A stretch of DNA of 64,000 nucleotides from Ginglymostoma cirratum. Taxonomy: Eukaryota. Positions within the stretch are counted from its first letter, which is position 1. The number at the start of each line of letters is the position of its first letter. The notes below the pieces were generated by a model. It was not told where the DNA came from. It worked only from the letters and a program-made list of their open reading frames with translations, and searched no databases. Below, piece by piece: positions 10,461 to 49,767 of this stretch. Both the position numbers and the translations under genes were made by a program. The stretch lies in assembly GCA_024137785.1 (NCBI GenBank), contig JAHRHZ010000111.1, positions 34,607,830 through 34,671,829 of the forward strand, in the 5' to 3' direction.

Positions 10461-10856
10461 TATGGAATGGCAGCAGTGGCTACTAATTACAATATGCAAT
10501 GCAGCATTTGCCGAACCATCTTTGACAGCGCCTTCCAAATGTGCAGCGTCCACCAACTAGAAGGTCAAAGACAGCAGACACATGGAAACACCATTTCCTG
10601 TAAGTTTCCCTACAAGTCACACACCATTCTAGTTTGGCATTTTATTGCTGTTCCTTTGGTATCAGTGGGTCAACGTATTGGAACTCCCTTCCCAACAATA
10701 CAGTATGAGCGATTACACCCCATGGACGGTTATGATTCAAGAAAGCAACTCACTGTCACCCGAATGATAATTAGCAATAGGCAATAAATACTGTCCCAGG
10801 CAGTAACAGTTACATTATCTTAATAAATTGAAACAAAACAAGTCTCCTATTAGTCA

Positions 10857-11044
10857 GAGATAGCAGGAACTCCAGATGCTGGAGAACCTGAGATAACAGG
10901 TGTAGAGCTAGATGAACACAGCAGGCCAAGCAGGATCAGAGCAGCAGGAAGGCTAACTTTTCAGGCCTAGACCTGAAATGTCAGACTTCCTGCTCCTCTG
11001 ATGCTGCTTGGCCTGCTGTGTTCATCCAGCTCTACACCTTGTTA
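10857..11044. mobile_element. PLE family A hairpin insertion
   Basis: Inverted arms of about 75 bp folding back inside hammerhead stem II. 14-bp TSD TCTCCTATTAGTCA (10843-10856 / 11045-11058). Confidence 0.92.
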
Positions 11045-12116
11045 TCTCCTATTAGTCAATTGAGTTCACCTAATTTGTTTAAAAGGGTTACTGACTGCCA
11101 AGGTCGATGTCAATGGCTATAATTTAGAATCGCAGCTCAATTTCAGAACTCACCAATGACAGTTCTCTAACAGTTGTAAGCTACTTACCTCCTGGATTCT
11201 GCTCCTCCATCCAATTAGATCATGGTGATCTGTATCTCAAATCACTCACACGCCTTAGCTCCAAATCCCACGGTACCCCAACCTATAATCAAAATTCATT
11301 GGTCTTAGTCTTAGAAACTCAATTTTCCAAGCAGTCACATAGATAGAGAGAGGCTCCTAAACCAAGGCAATCAACATGGAAAAAATAGATACAAGTTATA
11401 AACCAGTTAACCATTCAGGAATTGGAAACAGTTGCAATGTTGGACATGCTAACTTTTGGCTCAGAACTTAACCTGTGCCTTATCTCCTTGTTGAGATGAA
11501 TTGTAAGATCCTATTACAATTATTAGAGAAGGTCAGAGAGATGGATTCGCAGGTTCTTGGCCAACAGTTCTCTTTTAACCAGTTCCACTAAAAGGCAAAT
11601 GAAATGTTCGTGTATCTCAACACAGTTCCTGGGATGTTGTGAGTGTAGAATGGCAACTCTTTCATCCTACAAAGCAAGTAAATGCACTTGAAAAAAGTCA
11701 TCCATTGAAGTCTCCACATTTTTCTCAATGCAATGTATGGGTTTATAATGCAGAAGGAGGTCAGCTTAAATAACATCAAGGACTGGGCTTATCCTCAAGG
11801 TTAGAGTGAGGAAGCAATGCAACAAGCAATTGAATATGTTTGTCAGGGAAGATTTGTAAAAAGTCACACTCATTCACACCCATTTCCATTTTTTTTTGTA
11901 TCATCCACCCGCTCTGTGCATTTCGTGTCATATTAAACCCTTCACTAATCAATCACAGCTAAAGGATGTGACTATTGTCAATCTGAAAAGGTCACCAAAT
12001 AAATGTCTACATTACCTAGCAACAGCTTCCTCTGGCTATATCCTTTCAGAACCAAACGCATTTCTCTCAAAGTGCCTTTTCAGAATTCTTCCATGAAAGA
12101 TCTGACTGCTACTCAT

Positions 12117-12130
12117 GTTACCATGGAAAC
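12117..12130. promoter_or_regulatory. Candidate RFX X-box
   Basis: GTTACCATGGAAAC fits the RFX consensus GTTNCCATGGNAAC. Motif match only. Confidence 0.35.
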
Positions 12131-13499
12131 AATAATATAATGATCTTTGTAGCTGCTGCTCTGTGTGTATATACAAAGGGTTTCTGAGCCATCTAGATCA
12201 GGAAGGTTTAATCCCTGAGTTGTGCTGGGTCAATGATAATACGGCTGTTGCAATTGGCCTTTGCGCTCTTGCAGGAGGCAAGAGAAAAGTCAGTCTCACT
12301 ACTGCCTGGCTGAGATCAACCAACTTATACCAAACCTATGACCTTGGTGGTCTCTTGGCTGTGTTTGAAAACTTGACAGTGTACTTCACTAGAAAAGTGT
12401 TCAATAATGGGTTCACACCGCATACTTATGAATGTGGATAATGGAACTCTTGTCATTGAACCATGTCTCCAAAGATCAGAGTTTTTAACAGATGTACTTT
12501 TTTAAAAAATGTAAGGCATAAGTGAATCAGTCCTGAAAGAAATAAATACATGCAAAGGAGATCACAGTTACTTTAATATTAATGTATGTTACCTTTCTTC
12601 AACAGAACACATTTTCCTCCAGATCCCTGAAGTTTCTAAGGTTAGGGACCAATTGGAGTTGATTTTCAACCTGCCCACTAGCCATAAAGCTTACAATGTG
12701 CATGAACTGTCAATTATATAAACCATTTCCCACAGTGCAATGGAAAGGAAGGGTTCTATTAAAGGCATTTGTCCTACAGTACGTGCTTTACATTAGCAAT
12801 TGAGAATTATTACAGTGCATTTTACAGAATTGTTTTCCATAGATTATAGGAAACCTTTATTTTGCAAACTATGTTAGGTCCCTCTCTGTCACTAACATCA
12901 TGAAGTTTCAGAAACTCAGAATTAAAAAAAAATTCAAAATATCTCCAGTAATCTTTTTTGTTCTAAGGGTTACACTATTCCTTTTGTTTCACCACAGAAA
13001 TAAACTAGTATTGAGAATAAAGAGTGATTCAAGTTTCCCAAATGTTGTTCCATGTATGGTAAGGTGCCGATTAATGCCCATACTTCAGACCATGTTAAGA
13101 TACTACACAGAGGCAAAACATTTTCTTGCAGAGAGCAAGTGCCAATCAATTTACATAAAACTTCCATAGGCCTGTCATAATAAGGTATTGGTTATGTCCT
13201 GTGAAAAAGCTGTCAAGCCTACTGTCCTAAGTCAGCTGAAACTTGGATCATTCTTCGATGAAATTGCAGAACATTCATAAAAATTTCAGTCATAGCTTTA
13301 AAAAATTCAAATTTCATTTAAGGTCATTATATTATAGCTTTTTCTGGCATCCTTCCATCATAGGATTGGCTAAAATGTGATGGAGCCTTTGATTACCTCA
13401 TGCTTGTCTTGTGATGTGGCAAGGAGGAGAATGTTTCCATAGCAAGATGGCCGGTGAGTTTGTTTGGTCAGAGATCTAATGCATCTTCAAATCTAACAT

Positions 13500-13712
13500 A
13501 GATAATAGGTACTGCAGATGCTGGAGAATCCGAGATAACAAGGTGTGGAGCTGGATGAACACAGCAGGCCAAACAGCATCATAGGAGCAGGAAAGCTGAC
13601 ATTTCAGGCCTAGGCCCTTCATCAGAAAGGGACTAGGCCCAAAACGTCAAGCTTTCCTGCTCCTATGATGCTGCTTGGCCTGCTGTGTTCATCCAGCTCC
13701 ACGCCTTGTTAT
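13500..13712. mobile_element. PLE family A hairpin insertion
   Basis: Inverted arms of about 85 bp with the apex at the hammerhead 5' boundary. 14-bp TSD TTCAAATCTAACAT (13486-13499 / 13713-13726). Confidence 0.92.
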
Positions 13713-15439
13713 TTCAAATCTAACATGTCAAGAAGGAAGTGGAATATCAGTGGCCCAACTTGAGAGCCTAATCTATACCTTCAAGTTGAATCCTTGAAGA
13801 ACAAGGAAGATTACAACGTAATCTATTGATACCCTGCCATGCAAAGAATAACATGTGGGCAATTTTTGATCTTTTTGGATGAGGCCTCATGCACTTACAC
13901 CTCGTTGCCAGTACTGCTGCATTCTCAGAAGGATGGTGGAGATGTGTTCCCAGTGGTGTGAATACTTGCTGTCTAGATTCAAATTAAGTAACCTCCCCTT
14001 GAACCCGAAGTATGGGAGTGGAATTAGCTGTGGCCTAATCTGGAATGGCTGGCCCATAGTAATTCTGGATGTCATTTTTTAATTATAATATTAATGCATC
14101 TCCTAGCCTTTACTAATTGAGGAACCAAGGGTATGCTGCCTCGTCACACAAAGACAGCCGTCTCTCTCCCTCTCCTTAGCAGCTTGTAATTACTCAATGA
14201 TTAGTCAGTTAGAAAGAAGATAAATGACATTCCACAGACAAAACAGATACAGAACATCTCAGTATAAAGATGTATTTGAAAACGTACTTTATTAATGAGG
14301 CTGTGACGAAAGTGAATAGGTTGAGTTCGGAAGAGATGCACTATTTAGAAAATGATTTGAAAAATTTAACCAGACAAAGTTTAAAGCCCTACCTAAATTT
14401 GAGATAGTAAAAAGGAGCTCTAACATTGTACTGAAAATCTTTTTCAGTTCATTCTCTCAGCTTAATGCTGTTGCTAGGTGATTTTATCGTGGTGTGGGAA
14501 ACAACATAGCACTTAAAATGTAGGATGGAAATTTGATTATCATCTGTATTTATATACATTCATTGTGATTTTTTTGTCTCTATCATTCAACCCAGGCACT
14601 AGAAAAATATCTCTCTGCTGAATGTTATTCAATACCATAATATAAATACATAACGTGAATGATATACAATTCTGATAATTAATACGTATATATATGGTTC
14701 TGTCAGAACCTATTATGTTTAAACACAGGTCATAAAAGAACTGGCATGGGGCTGTAATACTAAATATTTGGAAGAAATAGCCCTTGAGGAAAGATAACAA
14801 GTCATAAAGTTGAACTGCAAAATTCATAAATCTCAGGAGGCCAAATTTAGATACATTTTCACAGAAGGAGTGCCATAATCAATACTGTGATTTAAAGCAA
14901 GTTTGCCTTATGTATTCTTAAATAGCTTTTATTTCATTTTGTAATGCATTGCTCTAGTTTTAAAGGTAAAACGTTCTTCAGAAGATAAAAAGTTGGCAAG
15001 AAAGAGAAACTCAATTAATTATGAATAATCTCCTACTTACTGACATATTTTGTGGCTACTCTGATCAACAAACAGTAAGAGTTTAACTCAGTCATTTGAA
15101 AATCACAATACTTTATGAATGGATATTTAAAGTCAGTCTATTTATGCAAGAATATTGTCCTTACCTTCTGATCAGTGTCATAAAATCTAATAATCTGTTT
15201 TCAGTAGGAATGTAGTATCTCTGAAAAAAAAATCTTTGAAAACGAGAATATTTGACTGCATTAATGCTGCAAGGTTGGACCCACACAGATTTATTTTGTA
15301 ATCTTCTCCACACACAAAACTATCTTTGTCATTGGAGAACTCTGGCATTCCTTGACTGTTAATTGTAAGAAATCATCATCATCATCCTCATGTAGATTGA
15401 TTAGAGTAGTCAGATTCCTTGAATGATGATTAGGATGCA

Positions 15440-15530
15440 GATATTTTTCATCAACCCATTCAGATGTGTTATTACACACCTCTGGAGCAGGTGGGATTTG
15501 AAACTAATGTTTGATCTTTTGACATATGCA
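15440..15530 (-). mobile_element. Short tRNA-derived SINE
   Basis: Reverse complement 'tcaaatcccacctgctccagaggtgtgtaataacacatctgaatgggttgat' matches 20910-21020, 36510-36625, 50310-50425 and 60742-60850. Confidence 0.65.
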
Positions 15531-15559
15531 GCAAATCTTGGACAATATTCAGGCAAGAG

Positions 15560-16010
15560 ACTGGAAAGCGACAAGTTACAGTTGTGTGGGACTCTGATGA
15601 AATATCCTGTACTTGCTTGGGTCGGTGCAACTCCAACAATATTCAAGAAGCTCAATGCTATCTAAGACAAAGCAGCCCATTTGTTTGGCACAGCACCCAG
15701 TGTGCATCATGTTCAAGATGCACTGGAGCAACTCATCAAAGCTTCTTTGATAGCACCTTCAAAACTCATGATCTGCAGGGCTTTGAAAGACAAGGGCAGC
15801 AAATGCATGGAAACACTGCTACCTGCAAATTCCCCTCCAAGTCACATACCATCCTTACATATATTACCCTTCCTTCACTGTTGCTGGATCAATCCTGGAA
15901 CTTCCTTCCCAACAGCACTATGGGTCTTCCTACACCACTTGGACTGCAGAGGTTCAAGAAATGAGTGGGGATTAGCAAAATAATGGTGGCCTAACCAGGG
16001 ATACACACTA
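15560..16010 (+). mobile_element. CR1/L2-group LINE 3' fragment (same family as 850-1865 and 9360-10830)
   Basis: 'gcaactccaacaatattcaagaagctcaatgctatc...catggaaacactgctacctgcaaattcccctccaagtcacatacc' is shared with both copies. Confidence 0.75.
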
Positions 16011-16046
16011 ACTGTGCTGGAAATATTTGCAACTTTTCCATTCAAA

Positions 16047-16251
16047 TGGTCTGGCAGCATCTGTGAAGAAAAATCAGAGTTAACGTTTCGGGTCCAGTGA
16101 CCCTTCCTTAGAACTGTTGTGAGGAAGAGTCACTGGACCCGCAACGTTATCTCTGATTTTTCTTCACAGATGCTGCCAGATCTGCTGAACTTTTCCAGCA
16201 ACTTCCGTTTTCCTTCTTGATTTACTGCATCCACAGTTCTTTCGGTTTTTA
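16047..16251. mobile_element. PLE family B hairpin insertion
   Basis: Inverted arms of about 65 bp, each holding a mutated hammerhead. 13-bp TSD TTTTCCATTCAAA (16034-16046 / 16252-16264). Confidence 0.9.
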
Positions 16252-16623
16252 TTTTCCATTCAAAAGTCTGTCTACTTTTAATGCTGCAATGAGTATTAAT
16301 TACCATAAGACAACATATCTGGATTGGTAATTAACTTTTAAATGTGAGTAATTACATTCCTTCAGATTTTAATTAATAATGAATGTTGTTGAAAGTATAT
16401 TTCCTCTTACTTTTTATTGTTGAAAAGAATGACATGTTGTGAAAGCTTTTTGTTTTGTGCTGACCAGGACAAATGCAGGAATGACAAATTTCAAACCCTC
16501 AGAACAAATTATTTCACAGAAAAGGGAGTTGACCACTTGGTAAGTTCGGTCTAATTGACTGAGGTATTGCCAATGAAGAGAAGACATAGGGAACTATATA
16601 CTTCTGGTGATTTAAAAAGGTGC

Positions 16624-16742
16624 AAGGGTCCTGACCCGAAACGCCAACTTTCCTGCTCCTCTCATGCTGCCTGGCCTGCTGTGTTCCTCCAGCTCCACAC
16701 TGTGTTACCTCTGACTCCAGCATCTGCAGTTCTTGCTATCTC
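16624..16742 (+). mobile_element. PLE family A-related 3' fragment
   Basis: 'aagggtcctgacccgaaacgccaactttcctgctcctc...ctccagcatctgcagttcttgctatctc'. Begins inside the hammerhead. Confidence 0.8.
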
Positions 16743-17166
16743 AAGGCTTGATCAATTTTATTTTATCGAAAACATGTCCCTGTATACGAATGTATGTTGC
16801 TTCTAGCAAGTGTAAATGAGCCAGGTTACAAAATCAACTGATTATCTTAAATCAGCTGCTTGTGCAGATATTAATGCAGTCAGCTAGCTATCCTCAATCA
16901 TGAATTCATGTCCAGCAAGTAGACATTTTATTACAGGTTCTGCAAGTGCTGATTTAATACAGTTTGTACTCTGCCAATTGAAAAGCCAGAAAAACATGTT
17001 TGATTTGATCAGCCAATTGTGGCACATTGTCAGGAGGCAAACTCCAAGGACCTGATGAAATGTTGATAAGATAGTCAAAGGCCTGGTTTGGGTCAGTGAA
17101 TATTTTTTTAAAATAACATCTTGCCAGCTGCACCACTGCTCAATGCTCCAAACATTCTCATTGGTT

Positions 17167-17478
17167 ATAGAATCATAGAATCCCTGCAGTGTAAAAGCAG
17201 GCCATTCGGCCCATTGAGTCCACAATGACACTCCAGAGTACATCCTACCTAGACCTGCCCCTACCCTATCTCTGTAACCCTGCATTTCCCATGGTTAATC
17301 CACGTAACTTACATATCCCTGGACATTATGGCCAATCCACCTAATCTGCACATCTTTGGACTGTGGGAGGAAACCCACACAGACACGGGGAGAATGTGCA
17401 AACTTCACACAGACAGTTGCCCAGGAGTGGAATCAAACCCAGGTCCCTGGTGCTGTGAAACACCGCTGAGTCACCTTG
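17167..17478 (-). mobile_element. HE1-type SINE
   Basis: V-domain 'gactgtgggaggaaacccacacagacacggggagaatgtgcaaact' and 'atagaatcatagaatccc' tail. Confidence 0.9.
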
Positions 17479-18170: not shown

Positions 18171-18172
18171 GA

Positions 18173-18209: not shown

Positions 18210-19105
18210 CCTTATCCCCCAAATGCTGGTGATTTGCAAACTGCAAATGTTGTAACCATTTACCTCTTGTTTCCATGTTCTATCCCAACCCTATTTTTGA
18301 GTCTTTTTCCTTTCAGTTACTGATACACTACAACCGGGCTAACCAATGCTGAAAGAGGAAGGTGTAGAAGTAGGGGAAGAGACTGATGATGAAGAAACAC
18401 ATTGCTTGCTGTCCCAATTGTGGTCACTGGTTCAGATGTTAATCCTATGCGTGATTTGCAGAATAGCTGAGAGGAAGGCCTTTCACACAATGAGCCACGG
18501 GGCTTGAGGCCTGCAGCCAGCAAAGAGGGCAAGGATCACGCAGAAGGGAAAGTCACTTGCATGTTCAAGCTTTCGAGGACAAGGGATTTTGATGCGGCGG
18601 CTTACAGAAGAGGCAAAATGGAATGATTGCTACTTTGGGAATCCTGCTGGAAAGCTTGCCGTCAATGAGAAGGATCATGGAGAATTCAATGGCAACGTGG
18701 CAGAGAGGTTTTCATTTAGCTGGGAGTCTATACTTTCCAATGTGGAAATGGAGGCCAAATGCTTTAGCGTACTTGTGAAACCATCCACCATGGATGTAAT
18801 GTTTGATAGTTGATGACTCAGTTTCAATTGCAGCCCATGTCTGTTGGCTGAAGTAACAGCTCAGATATCTAGAATGCAAAGTCAGCATAGCTGTAACTAC
18901 CTGTGTTCAAAGATCTCAGCAACTTGTTGCAGCAGTCAAGAATTCTATCCTGCAGAAGATTACTAGGATTGTTAAAGTGAAATAAAAATATTATTCATCA
19001 TTACGATTCATGTTGGAGAATCCTCTGTGAATTCTTTAGTAAGTCTCCATCTCCCCCTCCTCCACCTCACTCGTCCGACAGCTTGTCCTGCTCTGTATTT
19101 CCCTG

Positions 19106-19625
19106 ATGTGGAGGTGCTGGTGTTGGACTGGGTTGGATGAGATCAAAAATTACACGACACCAGGTTATAGCTAACCAGGTTCATTTGAAAACACTAGATT
19201 TTGAAGGGTTGCTCCTTCATCAGGTATAGTGAGAGAGACATCAAGGCACAGAATGTATAAGTAAAAGATCGAAGGATCATACAACTGACTCCACTCCATT
19301 CACACTAGCTGTATGACCCTTGGATCCCTCTGCCCTTCATCTCTCTGCCTATAAACTCTGTGCCTGTGTGCTCTCCTCTCACTGCACCTGATGAAGGGGA
19401 TGCACTCTAAAAGCCTATGATTTCAAATAAACCTGTTGGACTGTAACCTGGTGTCGTGAAGTTTATCCAATGCATTCTCATCAGGTGTGTGATCCTTTGA
19501 CCTTTTACTTATAAATTCTGTGCCTTGGTGCTTCTCTCACTGCACCTGAAGAAGGAGCAATGCACTGAAAAATAGTGTTTTCAAACCTGTTGGACTATAG
19601 CCTGGTGTCGTGTGATTTTTGACCT
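19106..19625. mobile_element. PLE family C: one inverted unit plus two tandem forward units
   Basis: Three related units (about 19140-19290 reverse, 19305-19460 and 19480-19625 forward), each with CTGA(T/A)GAAGG...AAA and 'cctgttggactatagcctggtgtcgtg'. TSD TGT(A/G)TTTCCCTG (19094-19105 / 19626-19637). PLE assignment is by architecture only. Confidence 0.75.
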
Positions 19626-20814
19626 TGTGTTTCCCTGCTCACTTTTCCTCACAGACTCTATTCTAAGTAGGAAATATAAATCTGTACTCAGGTCTGGGAT
19701 CATTTGGTTGTGCCAGATTCTTGAGGTCAGGACAAAGTCCAACAACATGTGTCACACCATTCTCCACCAGTCCTCCCCCAGATAGGAGTGACTTTATAGA
19801 ACTCTGGAATTCACCAGCACTTCTATAATCACAGCATCAGCCAATGCAAATCAATGAACAACTGGCTGTAAGCAGTTGATAATCCTTCTAAAAATAGAGC
19901 ACTTATGTAAGGTCCATTGTTGCTGGAGAGAGCTTGCACCTTCGCCGTTGTACGCTAATTTTAGAGTCCAATCTGAATTTGTCCTGATGGGTAAAATGGT
20001 CAAGGATCACAACTGAGAATAACTTGCTACTCTTTTAACTATTTATTGCACCAAGGTTAACATACAAATGTTCAGTACACTACCCTTTTTAATTTTAGTA
20101 AAATGCTATTGAGCTAACTCTCCTTATTTCAAGCAGTGCTCAATCAGTTATGGAAGTCTACATCACTGGTACAGTGGGAACTCTGCTTGGAGTTATCTTT
20201 GTGAGATGTTTCTGCCCCTAATTGTAAGTTCCTTCTCAGAAATAAGAGACACTCGATGATTGAAGTATCACTTCTTGTCCCCATCACTTTCGATAATAAC
20301 ATTTTCAATCAGTTCTATATCCTTGATTCGTGAATAACTATCTAACATGCATAGGTGATTAGACAGGGAAAAAAGGTAAGCATTTCAGCATTTTTGTGTT
20401 AGTAAGTAGATTCTGCAACAAGTTTAAGGATAACATTTCCAAGAGTCTTGGAACTAATCCTAATATATTTAAAGAACATTTATTATTTGGCAAGTCCTGG
20501 TAATGACTTGGTCACAGAGTTACAATATTCAAACCAGTCATTTAATTCTGGGCAAACGAATACTGCTGCATGGTGTGATTGGACTAGCTATTTCTTGGTT
20601 AGTGAAATCACGAAGACAATCCAATTGTGCCTATGTCTCTGTGCAAATAATTTTGCTTCAACTCATAGCTTGTTCTAAAAGTTCAGGTAAAAGTCCTACT
20701 GGCTCCTGTGATATGAAAATTGGATAATTTTGAAGATTGTCAGTGTGCACATGTCTCAACATGTTGGTTCCTATTAAGCATACTTTTACTGAAGAACTGA
20801 TTTTACGTTCCTGC

Positions 20815-21020: not shown

Positions 21021-23595
21021 CATACCTTCTTACTGCTGAACGTATGTTAGCTGTGAGAGTTTGAGACAGCATGTGAGCTGGAGTATTTAGCTCCCAAATG
21101 GCAACACTGGTGTGAAATCAGCATTACACACTGCTTGATGCCAATACATAGCCATTCTGCAAATATCCAATTGACATTCCCTACATGTACAGTAATTTAA
21201 GTTATATCTGGCATGATTAACTCCCAAACTGTGCACATATTTCTGGTGGAAAACACTCAAAGTACAAAGAACAAGTTGTTAAGGAGTCAAACTTTGCAGC
21301 CTAATTGAATTATTTAAATATCTCAGCATGATGAGAACATGAGAAAATATTAAAACCAAGCAGGAGGAGGCATCTAGCCATTTTGAGCCTGCTATGTCTT
21401 TCAAGAACTTCAGATCAAATCAGGGACTGAAAAATGATTTTTAGCATCATAGTATAAAAACTGAATAATTAAATTTAATGTTATGCCCTGATTTTGCCTT
21501 CAGTGACGATATTATTGGGCTCAACTATAATATCTAGGACAGATTTTATAAGGAAAGGAAGAATCTGGATTTAAATTCTGAACCGCAATGTTTCTCAACA
21601 TTGCTCCAATATTCTTTCAAGAAATCACAGCAGTGAAGCGCACAATTGATTCCAAAGCCCAGATGTATTAGAGTGGGAAATAAGAACTTATAAAAATGTG
21701 CAGAAGTGGTGAGGAACAAGGGAAGCATAGCAACTCAGCTGAATCATTAGCTAACTCAACTGTCAACACATAATGACTGGGTATCTCATAATCTGTAGTT
21801 AGGCAGACAGTTTCATAGATCGTTCCAGAATTTGTCTCCTATTTCATTATTCAAATGAGATTTTCTCAATAAAACAGCATTGTAATTAATTTGTTAACAG
21901 TGGTTAATTGCAATAAATTATTTCTGGTAACATGTTAAGTTTTTTTTTATTAATAATGCCAATACTTCTTGCTATTTAGCTATAAGAGGTACAATTGCTT
22001 AAGGTAATGACCAGGAAAGTTCCATGGATACTTAATCCTGGCTTTATTCTGAACATAGCATTGTGAGAGGCTAGCTGTGAAAAAAAATCCAACAGTGAAA
22101 TTACAGGAAATGTGTTAATGTAGAGGCTAGTGAGAAACTGCTGTTAGGGAGTGAGCTTAAACTTAAAAGAAAATCAGCTTGTTTATAAAGAAGGAGCAGC
22201 TACTTGGTTTTCAGGAAGGCATCTTTGCAAAAGGGAAGAAAAAATAAATCATGTCAAATCAAAATAAATTAATAAAATAAAACATTTTAGCGAATGGGTG
22301 GAGGATGCCAGAATGTTCTCTGTCTCACAGGCAATGAACTTCAAGTCAGACGCTGAGCTCTTCCCCATTCCACTGTCCTCCTCCGTGTTTCTGTTCCCTC
22401 CCCCATGTCTGCTGGCTGAGTTCAACTCCTCAATGACCCCTCCCCCAGGATCATGGACAGAGAATTCCCCCCTTCCCCACCCGTCAACACCATGGCTCCT
22501 TTATGGGTTCTGGACTCTTTGGGACTAACAAACTGTCCACCCCCTGATACTAGGTCACCTGACATTTCCAGAGAAATGGTCTACCTTTAACACTAAGGGG
22601 CTCGGTGTGAAACATGCATGAGAAAGCCAGGTTGCCTTCCATATCTTCACCAGCACCAAGTGAGTCTGCAGTTTGGGACAATGCTGCAGGCTCTAGCCAG
22701 GTCAGGCTAAAACTGTAGGGTCATAGGTCATTCTAAGGTGGATGCAGCCTCAAGGACTAACACCCGTCTCAACTACTGACCCACGTGTGGGAAACGATGA
22801 TGGTGCATTGTGTGTGCTCTGTTTCAGGAGGAACATAGCACAGGGACTAGAGGGGACGCTGTTGCCTCTTCAGCTGAGAGACACACTTTATTGATGTCCT
22901 CCTCCATCTCTAAGAAGTGGTGTCCTTTTCCTGGACAGCAAGGGAGACCTCAATTTCACAAGCCTGCTGCACCCTGTCCTCCATCTCCTTTTGAGGCCTG
23001 TGGGATGGTGCTGTGAAAGGCTCAGGGCCTTGCAGGACCTAGATGGGTTATGCCAGCTAGGTAAAGTGAGTAGTTTACCAGGTGGGTAGGGCACCAAATG
23101 GATTGGATACCAGGGTGGTCAGGTAAGTAAGTGAGTCCTTATTGTTGGTCAGAGGCATGTTGGGTCCAGGAGTGGGGTTCGACGCAGATGGGGGGACTGA
23201 GGTAGAGTTGCGGAAGCTGGGAGACAGCAGAAGAACTTGGACAGGCTAGGAGAATGGGCAAAGTAATGGTAGATACTGGAAATTGTGAGGTTATTGGTTA
23301 ACTATTAAGCTTAACTTAGTCGGAAATTTAAAGGGGCTTTCTTGAATGATTCCAGATGCATCAACACTTTTATCTCCCAGGTAATTCCAAAGATGCCTGC
23401 TATATACGGGACATTGTGCAATTGCACTCTGCACTGTTCCACCAACTGTCCAGCTATCGGAATGCCTGGGCCAATATCATTTACTATTAAGAAACACTGC
23501 ATTGATAATATACTTAACATAGGTTTCTTTCCTTTGTACTATGCTCTATTTTATTAAAACATTTAATAAAACAAAGAACTTCAGATTCTATAAAT

Positions 23596-23710
23596 CTGAA
23601 ACAAAAACGGAAATTGCTGGAGAAACACAGCAGGTCTGGCAGAGTCTAGGAAGACAAAGCAGAGTTACTGTTTCAGTTTCAGTGACTCATCATCTTCCAG
23701 TTCTGAAGAA
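23596..23710 (-). mobile_element. PLE family B fragment
   Basis: 'ctgaaacaaaaacggaaattgctggagaaacacagcaggtctggcag...cagagttac'. Confidence 0.7.
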
Positions 23711-26279: not shown

Positions 26280-26895
26280 GGGAGGCGATGGCCTAATGAT
26301 ATTATCAGGGAGGGTTACTGCATACACCCAGGTAAACTTCTGGGGACAAAAACAGAAATTGTTGGAAAAGCTCCACAGGCCTGACAGCATCTGTGGAGAG
26401 AAATCAGAGTTAGCGTTTCAGTTCTGGGTTCTGAGGAAGGATCACCGGACCGGAAGCGTTAACTCTGAGAAAGGGTAACCGGACCCGAAACAGTAACTCT
26501 GATTTCTCTCCACAGATACTGCCAGACCAGCTGAGCATTTCCAGCAATTTCTGTTTTTGTTTCTGATTTACAGCATCCGCAGTTCTTTCTTTTTTTTAAG
26601 CTCCTGGGGACATGGGTTCAAATCCCATCACTGAAGATGGGGGCATTTGAATCCAATAAAAAACGAATTAAAATTCTAACATTGACTGTAAATCCATTGT
26701 TGATTGTTGGGGGACAAAAATACATTTGGTTCACTGATGCTCTTTAGGGAAGGAAACTGCCATCCTTACCATGTTTGCCTAAATATGACTCCAGGGTCTA
26801 TAGTAATGTGGTTGACTCTTAACTGCCCCCTAGGAATGAGGAATAAATGTTGCCTATGCAGTAATGACCTCATCCTGTGAATGAATTTTTAAAAA
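26280..26895 (+). mobile_element. MetaSINE-like SINE, full length, interrupted by a PLE insertion
   Basis: Head 'gggaggcgatggcctaatgatattatc', B-box 'gggttcaaatccc', core 'ggttcactgatgctctttagggaaggaaactgccatccttacc' and LINE-type tail. Confidence 0.85.
26349..26596. mobile_element. PLE family B fold-back insertion with two tandem hammerhead-like cores
   Basis: Inverted arms, degenerate TSD TAA(A/G)CT(T/C)CTGGGGACA (26333-26348 / 26597-26612), and cores at 26431-26465 and 26465-26500. Confidence 0.85.
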
Positions 26896-31394: not shown

Positions 31395-31520
31395 AATGCA
31401 ATAGACTGCAGATGCTAGAAATCTAAATCAAGTCAGAAATTGCAGGAGAATTACAGCAGGCATGGCAACTGGAGAGGAGAAACAGAGTTATTGTTTGGAG
31501 TCCAGTATGGCTCTTCAGGC
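31395..31520 (-). mobile_element. PLE family B-related fragment
   Basis: 'gactgcagatgctagaaatctaaatcaagtcagaaattgcaggagaattacagcagg...aaacagagtta'. Confidence 0.65.
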
Positions 31521-32444: not shown

Positions 32445-32711
32445 ACAGTTAGCCAGCTCAGAATCAGTTCCTGACATGAGGAGATGTTAAACCTCCAGGT
32501 TATATCTGTCAGCCAGGGCTTTCCTGATTTGAGATAACAAGCATGGGGCTGGATGAACACAGCAGGTCAAGCAGCATCATAGGAGCAGGAAAACTTGATG
32601 CTTCGGGCCTAAACCCTTCATCAGAAATGGGTCTTTCCTGATTTGCCCAGGTTAACAACCATAATCAAGGAGCTGATAGGCAACAAGATCTAGCTGGTTC
32701 CAATCACTACA
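32445..32711 (-). mobile_element. Solo-LTR-like fragment related to 36362-36740 and 42848-43038
   Basis: 'ttatatctgtcagccaggg...tgattt...caggttaacaacc...aatcactaca'; the minus strand begins TGTAGTGATTG. Confidence 0.6.
32532..32632 (-). mobile_element. PLE family A single arm without tail
   Basis: Runs from just upstream of CTGATGA to 'cttgttatct'. 13-bp TSD CTTTCCTGATTTG (32519-32531 / 32633-32645). Confidence 0.9.
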
Positions 32712-33461: not shown

Positions 33462-35720
33462 ATAAGACCATAAGACATAGGAGCAGAAATAAGGCCATTC
33501 AGCTCATTGAGTCTACTCCATCATTCAATCATGGCTGATAAGCTTTTCAACTCCATTCTCCTGCTTTCTCCCCATAACCATTGATCCCCTTGACAATCAA
33601 GAACCTACCTATCTCTGTCTTAAATATACTCAATGATCTGGCCTCCACGCCCCTCTGTGGCAGTGAATTCCACAGATTCAACATGCTCTGGCTGAAGAAG
33701 TTTATTCTCATCTCCATTCTAAAAGGTCTTCCCTTCACTCCAACGTTGTGCATTCGGGTTCTAGTCTCTTCTACTAATGGAAACGTCTTCCCAATGTCCA
33801 CTCTGTCCAGGCCATTCAGGATTCTGTAAGTTTCAACTAGACTTCCTCCCCCTTATCCTTCTCAACCCCATTGACTATAGACCCATAGTCCTCAAACATT
33901 CCTCATATGTTAAGCCTTTCATTCCTGGGATAAGTTTCTTGAACCTCCTCTGGACCTGTTCCAGGACCTGTACATCCTTCCTGAGGTATGAGGCACAAAA
34001 TTTCTCATAATACTCTAAACATGGTCTGATCATGTCTGATCATGGTCTGATAAAGCCTCAGAAATACATCCCTGCTTTTATATTCTATTTCTCTTCGATA
34101 AATGCCTTCCTAACTACCGACTCAAAGTACAAGTCTACCTTAAGAGAAACATGGATTTGGTCTCCCAATTTGCACTTCAGATTTCTGAATTTCCTCCCTT
34201 TTTTAGAAAGTAGTCCCTGTTCTTCCTACCAAAGTTCATGACCTTGCACCTTCCCACATTGTATTCCATTTGCAACTTCTTTGCCCACTCTCCTAACCTG
34301 TCTAAAAGTTTCTGCAGCCTCCCAGCCTCTACAACACTACCTGTCCCTCTACCTTTCTTTGTATCATCTGCAAATTTAGCCAGAATGCCCTTAGTTCCTT
34401 CATTTAGATCATTAATGTATAAAGTGAAAAGTTGTGGTCCCAACACACCTTTATGGAACACCACTTGTTACCGGCTGCCATCCTGAGAAAGACGCTTTTA
34501 AGCCCACCCTCTGCTTTCTGCCAGGCAGCCAATCTTCTATCCATGCTGGCACATTGCCTCTAACGTCATGGGCCCTTATCTTACTCAGCAGCTTCCTGTG
34601 AGGCACCTTGTCAAAGGCCTTCCTGAAGCCCAGGTAGATAACATCCATTTGCTCTCCTTGTTCTAACATTCTCATTACTTCCTCAAAGAATTCTAATAGA
34701 TTTGTCAGGCATAACCTCCCCTTGACGAAACCATGCTGACTTTGCCCTATTTCACTATGCACTTCCAGGTATCCAGAAATCTCATCCTTCACAATGAACT
34801 CCAAAATCTTACCAACAACTGAGGTCAGGCTAATCAGTCAATAATTTCCTGTCTTTTGCCGTACCCACTTCTTAGACAGCAGCGTCACCTTAGTGATTTT
34901 CCAGTCCTCTGGGACCCTCCCTGACTCCAGTGATTCCTGAAAGATCGTCACTAACGCCTCCACTATCACTTCAGCTATCTCCTTTAGAACTCTGGGGTGT
35001 AGCCTGTCTGGTCCTGCTTATTTATCCACCTTCAGACAGTTCAGTTTTTCCAGCACCTTCGCTTTGGTGATGGCTACCATACTCACCTCTGCCCCCCACT
35101 CCCACCGGCTTTCTTGAATTTTTGGGATGTTATTCATGTCTTCCAAAGTGAATTCTGACACAAAGTACTTCTTCAGTTTCTCAACCATTTGTTTGTTCCC
35201 CATTACTACTTCTCCAACATCGTTTTCCAGTGGTCCAATGTCTCTGTTTTGTTCTTTATGTATCTATAGAAACTCTTGCAGTCTTTTTTATATTACTGGC
35301 TAACTTACCTTCATATTTAATCTTCTCCTTCCTTATTTATTTTGTTCGTTGTCTTCTGTTCATTTTTGTAGGCTTCGCAATCTTCCGGTTTCCCACTGCC
35401 CTTCTCCACATTAAATGCTTTCCCTTTTGTTTTCATGCTATCCCTGTCTTCCCTTGTCAGCCATGGTTGCCTCATCCTCCCTTTAGCATGTTTCTTTTTC
35501 CTAGGGTTGAAATTTTGCTGTGTCTCCCAAATCACTCCCATAAACTACAGCCATTGCTGTTCTACTGTCTTTCCCGCTGTCCCAGTCAATTCTGGTCAGC
35601 TCTTCCCTCATGCCTCTGTAGTCGCCTTTATTTAACTGTAATACTATTACATCCGATTCCACCTTTTCCCTCTCAAACTGCAGAGTAAATTCTTTCGTAT
35701 TATGGCCACAGCCTCCTAAA
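33462..35720 (-). mobile_element. CR1 LINE, 5'-truncated, disrupted ORF2 reverse transcriptase
   Basis: ORF fragments SQHGFVKGRLCLTNLLEFF, DVIYLGFRKAFDKVPH, GVLGPQLFTLYINDL, AKFADDTK and NFFSQSMLNLWNSLP. Tail repeat (cataagac)n. Confidence 0.95.
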
Positions 35721-39825: not shown

Positions 39826-42800
39826 AGAATCATAGAATCATACATTACAGAAAAGGCCTTTCATTCCATTGCGTTTCTGCCACCAAAAATATCCTACTAC
39901 TTACACTAGTCTCACTTTCTCACACTCAGCCCATAACTTTGAATGTTATGACACTTCAATTGCTCATCTAAGTACTTTTTAAAGATTGCATGGTTTCCCA
40001 CCTCAACTACCCTCCCAGACAGTGCATTCCAGTGCACACAATGGGTGAAAATGCTTTTCCTTAAATCCTCTCTAAAACTCTTGCCTTTCACTTTAAAATT
40101 ATGCTCCCCTGTTATTGACCTTTTGAGTAAGGGAAGCAGCTGCTTTCAACCACCCTGTCCATGACCCTCATAACCTTTTGCACCTCTATCAGGTTCCACT
40201 TTCAACCTTCTCTGCTCCAAAGAAAACAACCTGAGCTTCTCCAGTCTCTTTTCATGGCTAAAATGTTCTATCCCATGCAACAAGCTGGTGAATCTCCTCT
40301 GCACTCCCCTCAGTGCAATTACATCCTTGATATAGTGCGTTGACAAGAACTGCACACAGTACTGTGTGTGGCCTAACCAAAGGTACAGCTCCAACATGAC
40401 CGCCGTGTTCTTATAATCTCTGCCAGGACTGATAAAGCAAGTGTTCCATATGCCTTCCTAACTACCCAAATAACCTGCTCTGTTACCTTCAGAGATCTGT
40501 GGACAAGCAGCCCAAGATCCCTGTGTTTGTCTGAGCTTCCTAGTGTCCTACTATTTATTAAGTATTCCCCTGTCTTGTCCCTTCTGCCAAAGTGCATCAC
40601 TTCACAACTATCAGGCTAAATTGCCATTGATCTGTCCATCTGACCAATCCGTTTATATCCTCCTGAAATCTAACATCTTCATCTTCATTTCCAACCACCC
40701 AACCAATCTTTGTATCATTCATAAACTCCTTAACATCCTCCCCAACATTCTCATATACATCATTGATGAATAGGAGAAACAATAAGGATCCAGCACTGAT
40801 CCCTGTCGTATGTCACTGCATACAGGGTTCCAGTCACACAAACACCCTTTTACCACAAACCTCTATGTCATGTCACTGAACCACCTTTGGACGCAACTTT
40901 CCAAGTTACTCTGGTTATCACGAGCTTTTGCCTTTGTCAGTTTCTCATGTGGGGCCTTGTCAAAGACCTTGCTGAAATCCATAAAAACTACATCAACAAC
41001 CCTACCTTCATGCAAACACTTAGTCACCTTCCTGAAAAAATCCATCAGATTTATTAGGTATGACCTCCCTCTGACAAAGCCATGCTGACTATCCCTGATC
41101 CAACTTTGTTTCTTTAGATGGAGACTAATTTTCTCCTTTATGATTTCTCCAATAGTTTCCCTACCACTGACGTTAGACTAACTGTTCAATAGTCCTGCAG
41201 TCTATCTCTACCAGGCTTCTTGAAAAGCCCAACCACATCAGCTGTCCTCCAGTTCTCTGTACCTCCCCTGTGGCCAGACAACATTTAAAAATTTGGTCAG
41301 GGACCCTGTAATTTACTCTCTCACCTTCCATAGCACCCTGAGATACAACTCATCCAGACCTGGGGATATGTCTATTTTTAAATCCGCCAAAGCTGCCAAT
41401 CTTTCCTTGCTTCTAATGTCAATCTGCCCAAGAACATCACAGTTCACCTTCTCGAATTCTAAACTTGCATCATCCTTCTCCCAAGTATAGACAAATGTGA
41501 AGTATTCATTTAACGCTCGGCCGATGTCTTCTCACATCAAGCACGGATTGCGCCATTGGTCGCTGATATACCTTATTCGTTCCCTGGTTGTTCTCTTCCA
41601 CTTAACATACTTGTAGAGTCTCTTGGGATTCTCTCTAATTTTGTCTGTGAGTGATATTTCGTGCCCCATCTTTGCTATAATTACTTTCTTGTGTTGCCCA
41701 CTGCATTCCTGTCGGGCTTTTGCCGTTTTGCTACCTTTGTGTCTGTTATTTTCATCCCTTTTCCTTTCCATCCAATTCTCAATATTCCTGGACTTTTGGG
41801 ACCACTGACCTTGTTGCTTCTTCATTTCATCCTGCAGGGGACATGTTGGACCTGTGTTTTCCATAGTACCTTTTTGAAGAACTCTCACTGTTCTGTTGTA
41901 GATTCAGGTTGCTGTTCGCAGTCTATTTTGGCCAGATCGTGCCTTATTTTAATAAAATCTGCCCAACCCAGTGCAAAACTCTTCTCCACAGACTACCTTT
42001 CTCATTTTCCATAACAAACTTAAATATAATGCGTTGTGATTGCTATCAATAAAGATCTCCCATGTCACCTCGAAAACTTGTCTGGCTTCATTTCCCAGAA
42101 TTAGTTCCAACACCGCACTGTACCTTGTAGGCCCATCTACACGTGAGAGAGAAAGCTCCCTATTATACACTTCAATAAATGTGCCCCCTCTAAACCCGTT
42201 ATACTATGATTATCCCAATTGATATTTGGGAGTTGAAATCTGCTTATAAAATTACCCTATCATTATTAGTATTCACCTTAGAGAATTGACTATGTATCTG
42301 CTCCTTACCTGCCCGCTGCTTGGGAGCCTATAGCATACACCTCTCAGTGTGACTGCCATCTTTTTATTCCTAAGTTCTACGCAAAAAGCCTCATTTGATG
42401 ACTCTTTCAAGATATCATCCCTCCTACTACAGTTACTGATTCCCTAACTAATAATGCAACACCACCTCCACTTTTGCACCTGCCCCTGTCCTACCTGAAG
42501 ATCCAATTTCCCAGAACGTTAAGTCTTGTCACTCCCTCAACCACGCCTCTGTGATGGTAGCAACATTGTAGCTCCATGTGTCAATCCATACCCTTAGCTT
42601 ATCTTGTCCTATCTCCTGGCATTAAAGTAGCAGCCATCCAGCCTCACTCCCATGAGACTTGATATGGCTGCACTCACTCTTCCTTGGTTCTTTTTAAAAT
42701 TATATTGTGTTGTTCTTGAATTAACGCACTGTGTCCCCTGTCCCTGCTGCACTAGTTTAAACTCCTCCCAACAACACTAGCAAACCCACAGGATATTAGT

Positions 42801-44560: not shown

Positions 44561-46070
44561 TTTTATGAATGCTCCTGTGGGTCCCTCTCTTTCTTCACAC
44601 TTTCACAGTACTCTAAGTACTCAACCTATCTCTTAACATGTTTGTTGTTTGCTGCCTTTACAAAGCTTCATCCAAGTTTCTCTTCAAGATATACTTATCA
44701 GTTGCCTTTATGGTAAGTAAGCTCCTCATTCTCAGTAAAGCCAGTCCCTATGTTGGCTTCCTTTCTCTTGCTACTCTGAACTTGAATTCACCACTTACCT
44801 CAAACCTTCACTTGTATAAATGATCCTACTCATATTCACGACCAACAACTCTGCCTTACCATCTCCTGTGACCTCTTTATTGTTGCAGTATCGATCACTG
44901 TCAAGGCCACTGCCAAGGAATTCCCTGCATCCATCATGACTCACATCCTCCTTCCCGTTCTGTAGCTGCCTGATTAATCCTGGGTAATGTCTGCGGTAGC
45001 AGCTATTTTATTCCAAAACAAACGAAATGAGCTCAAAGTCTCCAAAGTTTTACTCATTGAGATCACCTAAGTCTTCAGAGGAATCAATCTTTTTTCTATA
45101 TGTGGCTAAAAAAGAGCAAAACGACTCATTTTCCCAATAAGCACACAACGTTTCTGTGAGGCTTTTTTAAAATATTTCATAACAACCTTTAGTCACAACT
45201 TGAACCAACTTAATTCGATTCATTCCATGCTCCATTGAATCTCTGTGAGGTCACAATTGCACTTCGGTTCATGGGTACATTTGTAGCTGTAATAAGAAAC
45301 TATTGCAACTGGGAGGGATTCATGTTCTCTCATAATGATTCTGCTGCTGCTGCTGTAATTAAAGCATCTCCCATGCAATCTCAAAACAGCTTGTGAGAAG
45401 CAGAGTGGGGAAGTTCCACATCTAGCGCAGTGGCAGCTGGAAATACTACTACGTTCTATTTTCAGCCCTTGTATATCACCTGCCTGTTTTAGGCTCCCTC
45501 AGAGATGCCTTTGCAAGAAAACAGTTCTGCTGATTATGGTGGCTAAATTGACAGCCCCCGAAAAGGAGCATTTGGATTGCGAGTCGGTGTTAATGAGCAA
45601 GAGGGTGGTGCTTGCCATCCATTTATTTGCATTCTGACTGGAATGTGAGAACTCATGCTCCAATGTTCTCTGAATCTGCACTGGATGCACGAGGCCATCT
45701 ATCCACAGAGGTTCAGAGGACATTCAAGAGAAATGGTGTGAAGGTGATGGGAGTAGAAAGCCCTCGAGGTCAATGCCAGCCGTCAAGCCCTGAAGGCATG
45801 GATAGAGTTCTGCAAGATGTTCAACAAATCTCTCACAAGTTTACAAGGTCATGGAACTTGTGTTCAAAAGCCTTTCTATTCACAAGCACCAGCCACCCAT
45901 CTCACACACAGCCTGATTTACCACTTACCCATGAATGTGCTAAAAAAAGAAAAAACTCGTTTATGTATAACTTTTAATCTCATCCAACGGGCTAAAGCAC
46001 TTCACAGGAAAGGGTTCGAAAACCATGTATGACATTGACGCACATAGGGAAATATTAGGTCAGATAACCT

Positions 46071-46378
46071 GGGTGGCATGGTGGCTCAGTGGTTAGCACT
46101 GTTGCCTCACAGTGCCAAGGTTGGATTCCACCCTCAGGCGACTGACTGTGTGGAGTTTGCATATTCTCCCTGTGTCTGCGTGGGTTTCCTCTGGGTGCTC
46201 CGGTTTCCTCCCACAGTGCAAAGATGCGCAGGCTAGGTGGATTGGTCATGCTAAATTGCCTGTAGTGTTCAGGGATGCATAGATTAGGTGGGTTATAGGG
46301 GTCTGGGTGGGGTGCTCTGGGGGTCGGTGTGGACCTGTTGGACCGAAGGACCTGTTTCCACATTGTAGGGATTCTATG
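46071..46378 (+). mobile_element. HE1-type SINE inside an L2-like remnant (about 46030-46710)
   Basis: 'ggtggcatggtggctcagtggttagcactgttgcctcacagtgcc...tgtggagtttgcatattctccc...gtagggattctatg'. Confidence 0.93.
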
Positions 46379-46871
46379 AACCAAAAGTAGGGTCAAATGA
46401 ATAGGTTTAAAGAGCCTCTTAAAAGAGGAAAGTGAGACAAAGAGGTGGAGAGGGCTAGTGATGGCCTTCCAAAGATGGCACTTGAAAAACATAGCCACCC
46501 AATGTTGGAATGATTATAATTGGGAACGCACAAGATGCCAAAATTAGAGGAGCACGGATATTGCAGAGTGTCATGTGAAAGGGAATTACAAAGATAGGGA
46601 CTGGAAAGGTTGATTGAAATTTTAAAGTCAGTGCACCGCTTGAGCATGTAGGTCAGCATGCACACAGGGATAATAGGGGAAAGAGTTTTGCTGCAAGTTA
46701 AGACAGAAGCAACTAAGTTTGAAGTCTCAGAGATAGAAGGTACTGCAGATGCTGGAGAATCCGAGATAACAAGGTGTGGGGCTGGATGAACACAGCAGGC
46801 CAAGCAGCATCATAGGAGCAGAAAAGCTTGACGTTTCGGGCCTAGACCCTTCATCTGATGAAGGGTCTAGG

Positions 46872-47271
46872 NNNNNNNNNNNNNNNNNNNNNNNNNNNNN
46901 NNNNNNNNNNNNNNNNNNNNNNNNNNNNNNNNNNNNNNNNNNNNNNNNNNNNNNNNNNNNNNNNNNNNNNNNNNNNNNNNNNNNNNNNNNNNNNNNNNNN
47001 NNNNNNNNNNNNNNNNNNNNNNNNNNNNNNNNNNNNNNNNNNNNNNNNNNNNNNNNNNNNNNNNNNNNNNNNNNNNNNNNNNNNNNNNNNNNNNNNNNNN
47101 NNNNNNNNNNNNNNNNNNNNNNNNNNNNNNNNNNNNNNNNNNNNNNNNNNNNNNNNNNNNNNNNNNNNNNNNNNNNNNNNNNNNNNNNNNNNNNNNNNNN
47201 NNNNNNNNNNNNNNNNNNNNNNNNNNNNNNNNNNNNNNNNNNNNNNNNNNNNNNNNNNNNNNNNNNNNNNN
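46872..47271. other. Assembly gap (400 N)
   Basis: Run of N. Confidence 1.
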
Positions 47272-47305
47272 TTTCTGATGAAGGGTCTAGGCCCGAAACG
47301 TCAAG
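47272..47305 (+). ncRNA. Minimal type I hammerhead ribozyme motif (family A)
   Basis: TTT-CTGATGA-A-GGG-TCTAGG-CCC-GAAAC-GTC-AAG: intact core, GUC triplet, ACGT palindromic stem III and very short stem I. Confidence 0.75.
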
Positions 47306-49767
47306 CTTTCCTGCTCCTATGATGCTGCTTGGCCTGCTGTGTTCATCCAGCCCCACACCTTGTTATCTAAGTTTGAAGTCTCCCTGCTGCTGGTAAACCT
47401 GCCTTATGGGGATAATCAAATTCTGCCCCAAGGAATTCAGTGCATTCTAGTTCAGAGTTTATGGTCACATATTTATTTACAGAATATTCTTCAAAGATAA
47501 ACAGAATTTTATTTCGACATTCATTACCTTCTGGCATTAATACTCAGTTTTATTTTCCTCACTCAAGCACTTCAATAAAAGTGATCTGATTTTGCAGATT
47601 AATTATGCTGCCTCCATCCCCAGTGACACATTCTTCCTAGAAGTGACTCATATGCTCTCATAACAATATCAGAAGAGTGATCTTTTTAATGCTGGAAAGC
47701 TGTCACCATGCAGAAATCTGCCTCTGACATTTACAGTGTTCTCTCCCCTGAACCAAAGCTGGAAGTAATAGTGCAGAAAACTAAGGTAGATATCTTAATC
47801 AGCAGAGCTTAAAATATCTTACAGCCAGGTTCTGCCCAGAAGAAACAGTAAACAACCTGCAGAAATATTTCAACTGCAGGAATCAAACGCATATTTTTTC
47901 CGCTGGCATTTAATTTATTCCAAGCAAACAGCAGGGTGATTCTGTGGGCAATTTTGTAAGCTGTGCTCACGGTGCAGATCATTGCAAAGTGAGATCAAGG
48001 GCCACAGAACTAGCCCACTATGTTGCATTGTCGCTGTATCAATGACATGTGTTTCCGTTCTGTGGGACTCCAGGCTGAAAATGACCCTCATAAGATCATC
48101 ATCACCATACGCAGAAAACTGTGTTCTACATTTTGCAAATAATGAAACCGTAATGTGAAGAGCTACGTACAAAATAATTTAAAATGCCAGGTGATGCTGG
48201 GTTTGTGAGTGCACGCATTATGCACCAGTTGTCATATAGAGTGGAGTGAATGCGGTGAAGTCAAAGGGGCAATAGGGCCTGAATTACAAGCCATTATTTT
48301 TAGGGACAGAAAATAGCACATCACAGGCTTAATAATTCCCGTCCGCCATTTGCAGCGATCAGCAGAATCAATTTGACATCTCTGCAGTTTTTAGAAGTTT
48401 TGAGCTGACTGAAGCTTTACCTCCAGCCTTTTAGGTCGATTCCCATTAAACTGCAAACTACCCAACTTCATTTTCTGGCCCCATGCAATCGTTTTCTCTC
48501 CTCAGGAATAATGCCTTTCCCTTTCAGAGTCTCTGGTATTATACTCCTCCTGAAAATGACACCTTGACTCCCTCTCCTAGCTACTCTTTCCTCTGCACAA
48601 ATACATCGTCAGCTCCAAAATCTCCACACCTCTTTATCATAACACAACAGTTGAGTATTTCCAATATTAGTTTCTACTCCATGCAAGGCAGATGGGGCTA
48701 CAGTGAACATAACAAATAACTCTTCTGTAACTATCGTCAATTGTAATATCCCTCTTTGCCCTTCTCTGTCATTTTTCTGCAGTTGACCCAGGGCTAAATC
48801 TTACAATTTTCTTTGGCAAGTTTTTGGAGGAATCCCCACCACAAGACCTGTCGAGGTTTCTCAATGTTTATTACCAAGCATGCCTAGTTAGCTAGCTGTA
48901 CTGGCCCTAAAGCATTCCTCATGTCCAATTCTATCCCCAAATTACCACACTCCATTCCCAGAATAACTTGGCACTCAGCAGATGTCCGCTGAAAGACTGT
49001 CATTGCTTGTGCTCCCACATCCTCTGAAAGGTCATTGGGCACCTATACAAGTGTTGGCATCTGGTTTTGCCCCTGACCAGCATCCAGGAAGCTATACTGC
49101 CCACATCACATGACTGACACTCTTTCATACATATTGACCCCACCTTTTCAGCTATTTGACCACCGCACCACACACATTAGCTGTCTGTAGCTACATCCCA
49201 TCTAACTACCCTCTCTGATTCACCTCTACTCTGTCCCCAGTGTGCAGTGGACACCTGCACTTCGTCATTGTCCAGTAGAGGAACATCTTCTGTAGGCAAA
49301 CAATCAGGCAATTCCAAGAATGAGCTGTTATTTATAGCCAGCAGAAAGGAACACAATAAAATCTATAGAGGCTTCAGTTCACTCCCACAATTGCAATCAC
49401 ATGCTGACGCTATGCCCAACAACTACTTTACAGTCTATGATGATTTGCTGCACTGACCCCTCATCAATTGGAACCTGGTGTTAGTCACCTGCTGTCCAGC
49501 TTGTAAAGCCCGACACAGCTAACTCTAACATGCAGGAGGAGATCTCCCATCTCCCCAGTGTCCATATTCTCCCATTCAGAAGTGTGCTCCCATTCACCCA
49601 GTTCCTCAGGATCTATCTTATCGTCTCATTGCCTGCTCTAGAGAACAATATGCAAGGATGATGCAGCACACTCTGTGCAGGCTGTACTGGAGGGCCCCAG
49701 ACCAGTAGAAACAGAGGAACTGAGTCTTCAACACCCTATTTATTGACTTATCTATTCTCCCCTTTAA

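Follow-up and report, generated by a model that had tools for sequence, protein, structure and literature searches.

The window analysed here, 64 kb of repeat-rich vertebrate DNA with a GC content of about 41% (Ginglymostoma cirratum, assembly GCA_024137785.1, contig JAHRHZ010000111.1), contains a dense set of short fold-back insertions, which are almost certainly the head-to-head ends of Penelope-like retrotransposons (PLEs). All counts given below refer to this window. Profile searches recovered 11 arms of family A, 12 arms of family B plus one short duplicate, and 3 arms of family C, with one match (E 0.4) in a reversed-sequence control. The arms group into 17 insertions, eight inverted and nine single-armed, which together occupy 5.6% of the sequenced bases (Table 1). 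The A and B profiles detect each other, indicating that these two families are homologous at the DNA level; judged by sequence, both appear to be Neptune-type, and family C probably belongs to another PLE lineage. PLE anatomy itself is already known and the elements are ordinary. What the window adds, from small numbers, is a one-tail rule that holds in 8/8 inverted insertions, centres that differ between insertions, family A inner ends that mostly lie near a predicted transcription start, and a modest excess of overlap between target-site duplications (TSDs) and element ends.

Fixed outer ends and variable centres

The outer ends of the insertions are fixed and the inner ends vary. Untailed family A arms stop at CTTGTTAT(CTC) in five of five cases and tailed arms at TATC(TCT) in six of six, as a preliminary description of this DNA had proposed from the sequence. 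Four of five untailed family B arms stop at the equivalent place, and the fifth, the left arm of the hairpin at 16047, ends about 30 nt earlier. The tail, which had been put at roughly 32-35 nt, extends 32-39 nt at eight of the nine junctions measured, depending on how overlap bases are assigned; the ninth is the short arm at 16047, recognized before as further truncated, where the extension amounts to 68 nt. Exactly one arm is tailed in every inverted insertion, an outcome with a probability of at most 0.5^8 = 0.004 if each end were chosen freely. The centres, in turn, are all different and often consist of short palindromes: that of the 10857 hairpin falls within hammerhead stem II, and that of the 26349 hairpin holds a short tandem duplicate of the hammerhead region (26431-26467). 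Among the single arms, six are tailed and three untailed, one of the latter (32532) with a TSD, so that each end type works alone.

The preliminary description listed seven simple fold-backs. Their positions and inverted layout are right, but the hairpin at 53821 and the nine single-arm copies had been overlooked, and three of the seven are less simple than supposed, given the central tandem at 26349, three arms at 19106 and 400 N at 46729. The 19106 insertion consists of an inverted tailed arm and two tandem direct arms resembling pseudo-long terminal repeats (pLTRs; ~19307-19464 and 19481-19625), of which the first, in the middle, belongs to a subfamily unlike that of the two flanking arms; a single TSD therefore surrounds sequence from two templates or from a chimeric tandem source. 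The two arms at 13500 disagree at an indel that segregates between subfamilies, and those at 10857 have seven non-majority states in common. At 46729 the arms are 99% identical, differing at one position, and a third pLTR start precedes the assembly gap (46872-47271) that hides the interior. This is the sole assembly gap in the window and it lies within the youngest fold-back, and young hairpins may therefore be under-represented in the assembly.

All seven TSDs reported before are borne out at their lengths of 7, 14, 14, 13, 12 (one mismatch), 16 (two mismatches) and 16 bp. In a control of 400 random site pairs, scores of at least 13 occurred in none, of at least 8 in five and of at least 7 in nine. 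Since no random pair scored 13, the TSDs at 10857, 13500, 16047 and 46729 are certain; those at 10280 (score 7), 19106 (8) and 26349 (8) are weaker, with p of about 0.01-0.02 each. A TSD is present at 8/8 inverted insertions versus 1/9 single arms, the borders of which are approximate and several of which are old. The TSDs are 65% AT, compared with 59% for the window. Upon rejoining, the flanks of two of the eight insertions tested (26349 and 32532) match an uninterrupted paralog spanning the junction, and no such paralog was found within the window for the other six. At 26349, the uninterrupted paralog of the host repeat carries the target site once; for 32532, the window holds two paralogous empty sites.

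The further claim that TSDs often overlap the element ends holds in weakened form, as the excess is real but modest and overlap is absent at four of nine untailed ends. Overlap at these nine ends is 4, 0, 2, 1, 4, 3, 0, 0 and 0 nt (total 14), where chance predicts 0.68 per junction (P = 0.016-0.019). A test on eight junctions had given P = 0.006-0.011, which the ninth junction, with zero overlap, weakened to the value used here.

Table 1 Penelope-like insertions and associated motifs in the window (positions count from its first letter)
Feature	Position	Position with TSDs	Strand	Details
Family B hairpin	10280-10460	10273..10467	.	Left arm untailed, right arm tailed; 7-bp TSD 10273-10279 / 10461-10467
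Family A hairpin	10857-11044	10843..11058	.	Left arm tailed, right arm untailed; 14-bp TSD 10843-10856 / 11045-11058
Family A hairpin	13500-13712	13486..13726	.	Left arm tailed; 14-bp TSD 13486-13499 / 13713-13726
Family B hairpin	16047-16251	16034..16264	.	Right arm tailed; 13-bp TSD 16034-16046 / 16252-16264
Family C insertion	19106-19625	19094..19637	.	Three segments; 12-bp TSD, one mismatch
Family B hairpin	26349-26596	26333..26612	.	Right arm tailed; 16-bp TSD, two mismatches
Family A inverted pair	46729-47366	46713..47382	.	Left arm tailed; 16-bp TSD
Family B hairpin (eighth)	53821-54002	53808..54015	.	Left arm tailed; 13-bp TSD, one mismatch, 53808-53820 / 54003-54015
Family A single untailed arm	32532-32632	32519..32645	-	13-bp TSD
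Family A single tailed arm	1866..2057		+	About 68 nt of upstream body; TSD sought, not found
Family A single tailed arm	16624..16743		+	Without convincing TSD
Family A single untailed arm	61773..61860		-	Adjoins LINE reverse transcriptase remnant; TSD sought, not found
Family B single untailed arm, old	4472..4559		+	
Family B single arm, old	7301..7410		+	Degenerate tail
Family B single tailed arm	23568..23694		-	
Family B-related single tailed arm	31403..31520		-	Diverged
5'-truncated family A PLE copy	56892..57535		-	Open reading frame end, 3' untranslated region, pLTR, tail
C-terminal half of GIY-YIG endonuclease, P0002	57323..57535		-	68/71 residues identical to P0003
Minimal hammerhead-like core	56992..57019		-	CUGAUGA, stem II, GAAAC, GUC; motif only, not Rfam
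Predicted transcription start	57023..57054		-	TATA-like TATTTAT 57048-57054 and initiator-like A 57023

Protein link, hammerhead-like and promoter-like motifs

Family A is identified as a PLE end because the copy at 56892 joins a GIY-YIG gene to arm and tail, reading from the endonuclease coding sequence via the 3' untranslated region into the family A arm. The peptide encoded in the window is 96% identical to a Rhincodon typus protein and 89% identical to a Stegostoma tigrinum protein, which points to a carpet-shark-like host genome. Its best relative, P0003, has Pfam matches to a reverse transcriptase (RT; RVT_1) and to the GIY-YIG domain, and also carries a CX2-5CxxC linker; the alignment of a further relative, P0004, spans 57547 to 56987 and reaches into the family A arm. 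The RT (YIDD; RVT_1 below the curated cut-off) is present in these two relatives, the window copy being truncated within the endonuclease. The linker, which sets Neptune and Nematis apart from Penelope/Poseidon (PMC8557442), is likewise found in P0003 rather than in the window sequence, and Nematis has it too. Pfam gave no match for P0002 alone, and a search by sequence for a solved structural relative of P0003 returned none. Family B is tied to PLEs via its DNA homology to A, and family C only via a hammerhead-like motif, a tail and its tandem and inverted layout.

A strict hammerhead core pattern, predicting a ribozyme, matches 8 of 13 arms tested, including two degenerate family C arms, and is absent from the other five; Rfam yielded no match in the window at gathering score. 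In the 56892 copy, TATTTAT begins 31 nt before an initiator-like A that itself sits 4 nt before the hammerhead core, a spacing that suggests a transcription start. The upstream TATA-like box is present in the two longer family A copies, and the family A stubs are without it. The inner starts of family A are compatible with this placement: relative to the hammerhead core, 10 of 11 segments start within the interval from -7 to +13, and no segment starts at +28, near which the cut is predicted. For family B the test is one-sided, its reference extending only to -4.

A few further observations concern the same elements and their surroundings. The family A antisense arm at 56905-57008 gives a weak Rfam match to RMST conserved region 8 (14.6 bits, E 1.9; gathering score 80), which is probably due to chance, although an ancient PLE remnant in the long non-coding RNA RMST is a possibility worth a look. 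A pLTR-to-tail helix (GATGCTG with CAGCATC) that both A and B conserve, pairing being intact in 88% of cells, is not claimed, as its covariation did not exceed that of shuffles (43/500). Around the family A arm at 61773 and the remnant of a long interspersed nuclear element (LINE) RT, 61467-62053 forms a 30-nt inverted repeat, which lengthens to ~75 nt at 75% identity. Decayed and ordinary LINE RT fragments lie at 34180-34837, 40866-41177 and ~50600-51140, and Pfam, applied to 32 of 265 open reading frames of the window, detected three LINE-type RT fragments and nothing else. Outside the PLE set, 7077-7261 contains a 148-bp inverted copy (99% identical) of 6371-6525, which lies some 570 bp upstream. 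Direct repeats of 15 bp, differing at one position, border the copy (7077 and 7247), and it is thus a local insertion that was copied from a template and bears a TSD like that of a retrotransposon; host RNA or DNA was possibly mobilised in trans. A 64-nt inverted duplicate (52238-52301 and 53350-53413; 98% complementary, 1048 nt apart) shows no TSD at either copy.

Formation of the hairpins

The data are compatible with a model, held with somewhat more confidence than doubt, in which the hairpins are dead-end insertions arising by double priming of PLE RNA at two fixed sites. Both arms point outward, and both outer ends therefore correspond to 3' sides of the RNA. In this model, the GIY-YIG endonuclease would nick both target strands 7-16 bp apart, a stagger deduced from the TSDs. 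Each resulting 3' end would then prime RT at an internal position of the element RNA, one of them immediately ahead of the tail and the other immediately past it. The two sites themselves are known in vitro from another PLE, and the pairing of one site with each strand is what we infer here. With uncut RNA as template, the two cDNAs would cover one and the same pLTR segment and terminate close to the hammerhead, either at the 5' end of the RNA or a little short of it; they would then be joined head to head, often presumably via a short self-complementary sequence. Each insertion would produce its own fold-back between TSDs, in which the outer ends are fixed, only one arm is tailed and the centre varies. 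That either site can serve as the primary end within one subfamily is shown by the untailed arm at 32532, which has a clean TSD and shares 97% identity with the tailed copy at 56892.

Several points weigh against this model. The sample is small, with eight hairpins in one window, and neither site coincides with the end of the left arm at 16047. In vitro, start-site use does not differ between the two strands and priming is reported as non-homologous (PMC11167929), unlike the strict one-each pairing and mild overlap excess seen here, and palindromic centres are equally expected under a published self-priming model (PMC3846280). The discordance of the arms at 13500, together with the middle arm from another subfamily at 19106, argues against a single template in these two events. 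Family C arms extend upstream past TATA- and initiator-like motifs, so that a run to the transcript start fails for C; because of this, the one-sided test for B and the internal, TATA-less promoter of Drosophila virilis (PMC2377424), it can only tentatively be proposed that RT usually runs off the 5' end of the transcript and leaves promoterless stubs. As for the PLE assignment, tblastn of 186 fetched proteins found no match to B or C copies, and relaxed Rfam scans of three elements returned hairpin-shape or chance matches and no hammerhead.

The two-ended priming put forward in the preliminary description fits the data, in that both ends may be target-primed, and self-priming by fold-back is a possible alternative. 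In that account, one target-primed cDNA from the tailed site folds near the hammerhead and copies itself, or antisense RNA primes itself, and endonuclease cutting or end joining sets the second end at the internal site. Such a process has been proposed in the literature to explain both head-to-head junctions of PLEs (PMC3846280) and the origin of the tail (PMC8557442); it yields one tail by construction, and agrees with the often palindromic centres, the single difference between the arms at 46729 and the states shared by those at 10857. It is harder to reconcile with the 32532 arm, where a 13-bp TSD marks the internal site as a primary end without inversion, with in vitro RT starts mapped to both sites (PMC11167929), and with arms from different subfamilies at 19106 and possibly 13500, which self-copying cannot give; overall, it is a possible but less probable origin. 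Discordant arms would be readily explained if two RNAs were primed independently at either site and symmetric hairpins were then deleted or not assembled. The youngest insertion indeed already lies at an assembly gap, and each strand uses both sites in vitro (PMC11167929). However, the one-tail hairpins that persist in the genome are already near-perfect palindromes of 70-95 bp, and symmetric hairpins number 0/8 with old diverged copies included, which renders this explanation improbable.

It is very unlikely that the insertions constitute a self-propagating non-autonomous PLE family, retrozyme-like or resembling short interspersed nuclear elements, that is copied as a unit. Their density and similar sizes would fit, and PLE-derived non-autonomous retrozymes are known in vertebrates (bioRxiv 10.64898/2026.07.22.740005). 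Yet no internal junction is shared among the eight centres, the family A stubs are devoid of the upstream TATA-like box, and retrozymes are head-to-tail tandem arrays (bioRxiv 10.64898/2026.07.22.740005). Finally, the short, non-coding, inverted-repeat shape and the TSDs recall miniature inverted-repeat transposable elements (MITEs) of DNA transposons, and the insertions had indeed been called MITE-like, a term that applies to their shape only, given the differing centres. TSD length varies from 7 to 16 bp, the inverted repeats are not flush, with one arm overhanging by 32-39 nt, single arms exist, and arms occur joined to the gene of a PLE endonuclease. A TSD of variable length and the link to PLEs refute this identity, leaving it next to no probability; the hairpins are not MITEs.

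Double priming might also take a more specific, coupled form, which is put forward tentatively. A protein dimer on one RNA (or a tandem RNA) would give each start site one strand, with 2-4 nt of pairing between target and RNA assisting in vivo; where this occurs at the 5' pLTR, the two cDNAs would run off the capped end, so that the inner ends of promoterless stubs would map the transcription start. If this is true, the stubs provide a genome-wide read-out of the second-strand step of PLEs. Both the strictness of the one-tail rule and the way in which inner ends cluster merit a genome-wide count, and across thousands of shark copies, tail counts, arm concordance, inner ends and junction overlap could separate double priming from fold-back.

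Comparison with known systems

Inverted pLTRs with a one-sided tail and a TSD have already been described in rotifers (Arkhipova et al. 2013, PMC3846280). As in endonuclease-positive (EN+) PLEs (PMC3846280; Craig et al. 2021, PMC8557442), the shark insertions combine head-to-head pLTRs and a 30-40 nt tail at one end with 5' truncation, partial tandems and palindromes at the inverted junction. The EN+ traits present in the window comprise this optional tail, direct and inverted pLTRs, a variable TSD, 5' truncation, a predicted minimal hammerhead in the pLTR and, for family A, a C-terminal GIY-YIG endonuclease linked to the pLTR. The TSD of EN+ PLEs is about 8-10 bp (PMC3846280, PMC8557442), whereas TSDs in the window reach 16 bp, and unlike published EN+ PLEs, most insertions here are two pLTR arms without an open reading frame, at very high density. 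The PLE papers state the formation of inverted, one-tailed insertions as unresolved.

The closest experimental parallel is the Poseidon element PAc of Anolis carolinensis, for which two internal RT start sites bracket the tail in vitro (Frangieh et al. 2024, PMC11167929). As such, the earlier inference of retrotransposition with two fixed 3' termini, whose link to PLEs is supported by protein homology, was largely known and is not new. In PAc, both target strands are cut and extended, uncut RNA serves as template and a dimer is predicted (PMC11167929); hammerhead cleavage is unneeded there, and AT-rich targets are common to both systems. PAc belongs to the Poseidon clade, whereas the protein linked to family A is of Neptune type, and the main text on PAc reports priming without homology and is silent on one site per strand in a single event (PMC11167929).

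The predicted hammerheads resemble those of metazoan PLEs (Cervera and de la Pena 2014, PMC4209133) in CUGANGA, the extra base, stem II, GAAA and a short palindromic helix III. That study also reports hammerhead motifs that occur in pairs, one on each strand, at distances of 100-700 bp; the text consulted makes no mention of sharks, and the hammerheads of the window are predicted by motif. Like non-LTR retrozymes (bioRxiv 10.64898/2026.07.22.740005), the insertions are non-coding, hammerhead-bearing and derived from PLE pLTRs. Retrozymes are built of head-to-tail units each with a type I hammerhead, whereas the window insertions are head-to-head and not copied as units, tandem structure being limited to partial arrays of two units at 19106 and 26349. 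The repeats catalogued for the whale shark include Penelope (PMC8455134). The literature searched held no paper describing these shark hairpins or tails per insertion, although subscription journals and repeat databases, which may file the families, were mostly outside the search; metagenome contigs, viral contigs and prokaryote genomes returned 0 matches for further copies.

Making up 5.6% of the window, such stubs can be mistaken for MITEs in annotation or cause breaks in assemblies. Their layout also invites comparison with the twin priming of L1, in which both target 3' ends prime cDNA and an inversion arises inside one TSD. There, the cDNAs are templated by neighbouring parts of the RNA, with no fixed position for the second start, whereas the two arms in the shark window would be copied from one shared stretch, beginning at two fixed sites.

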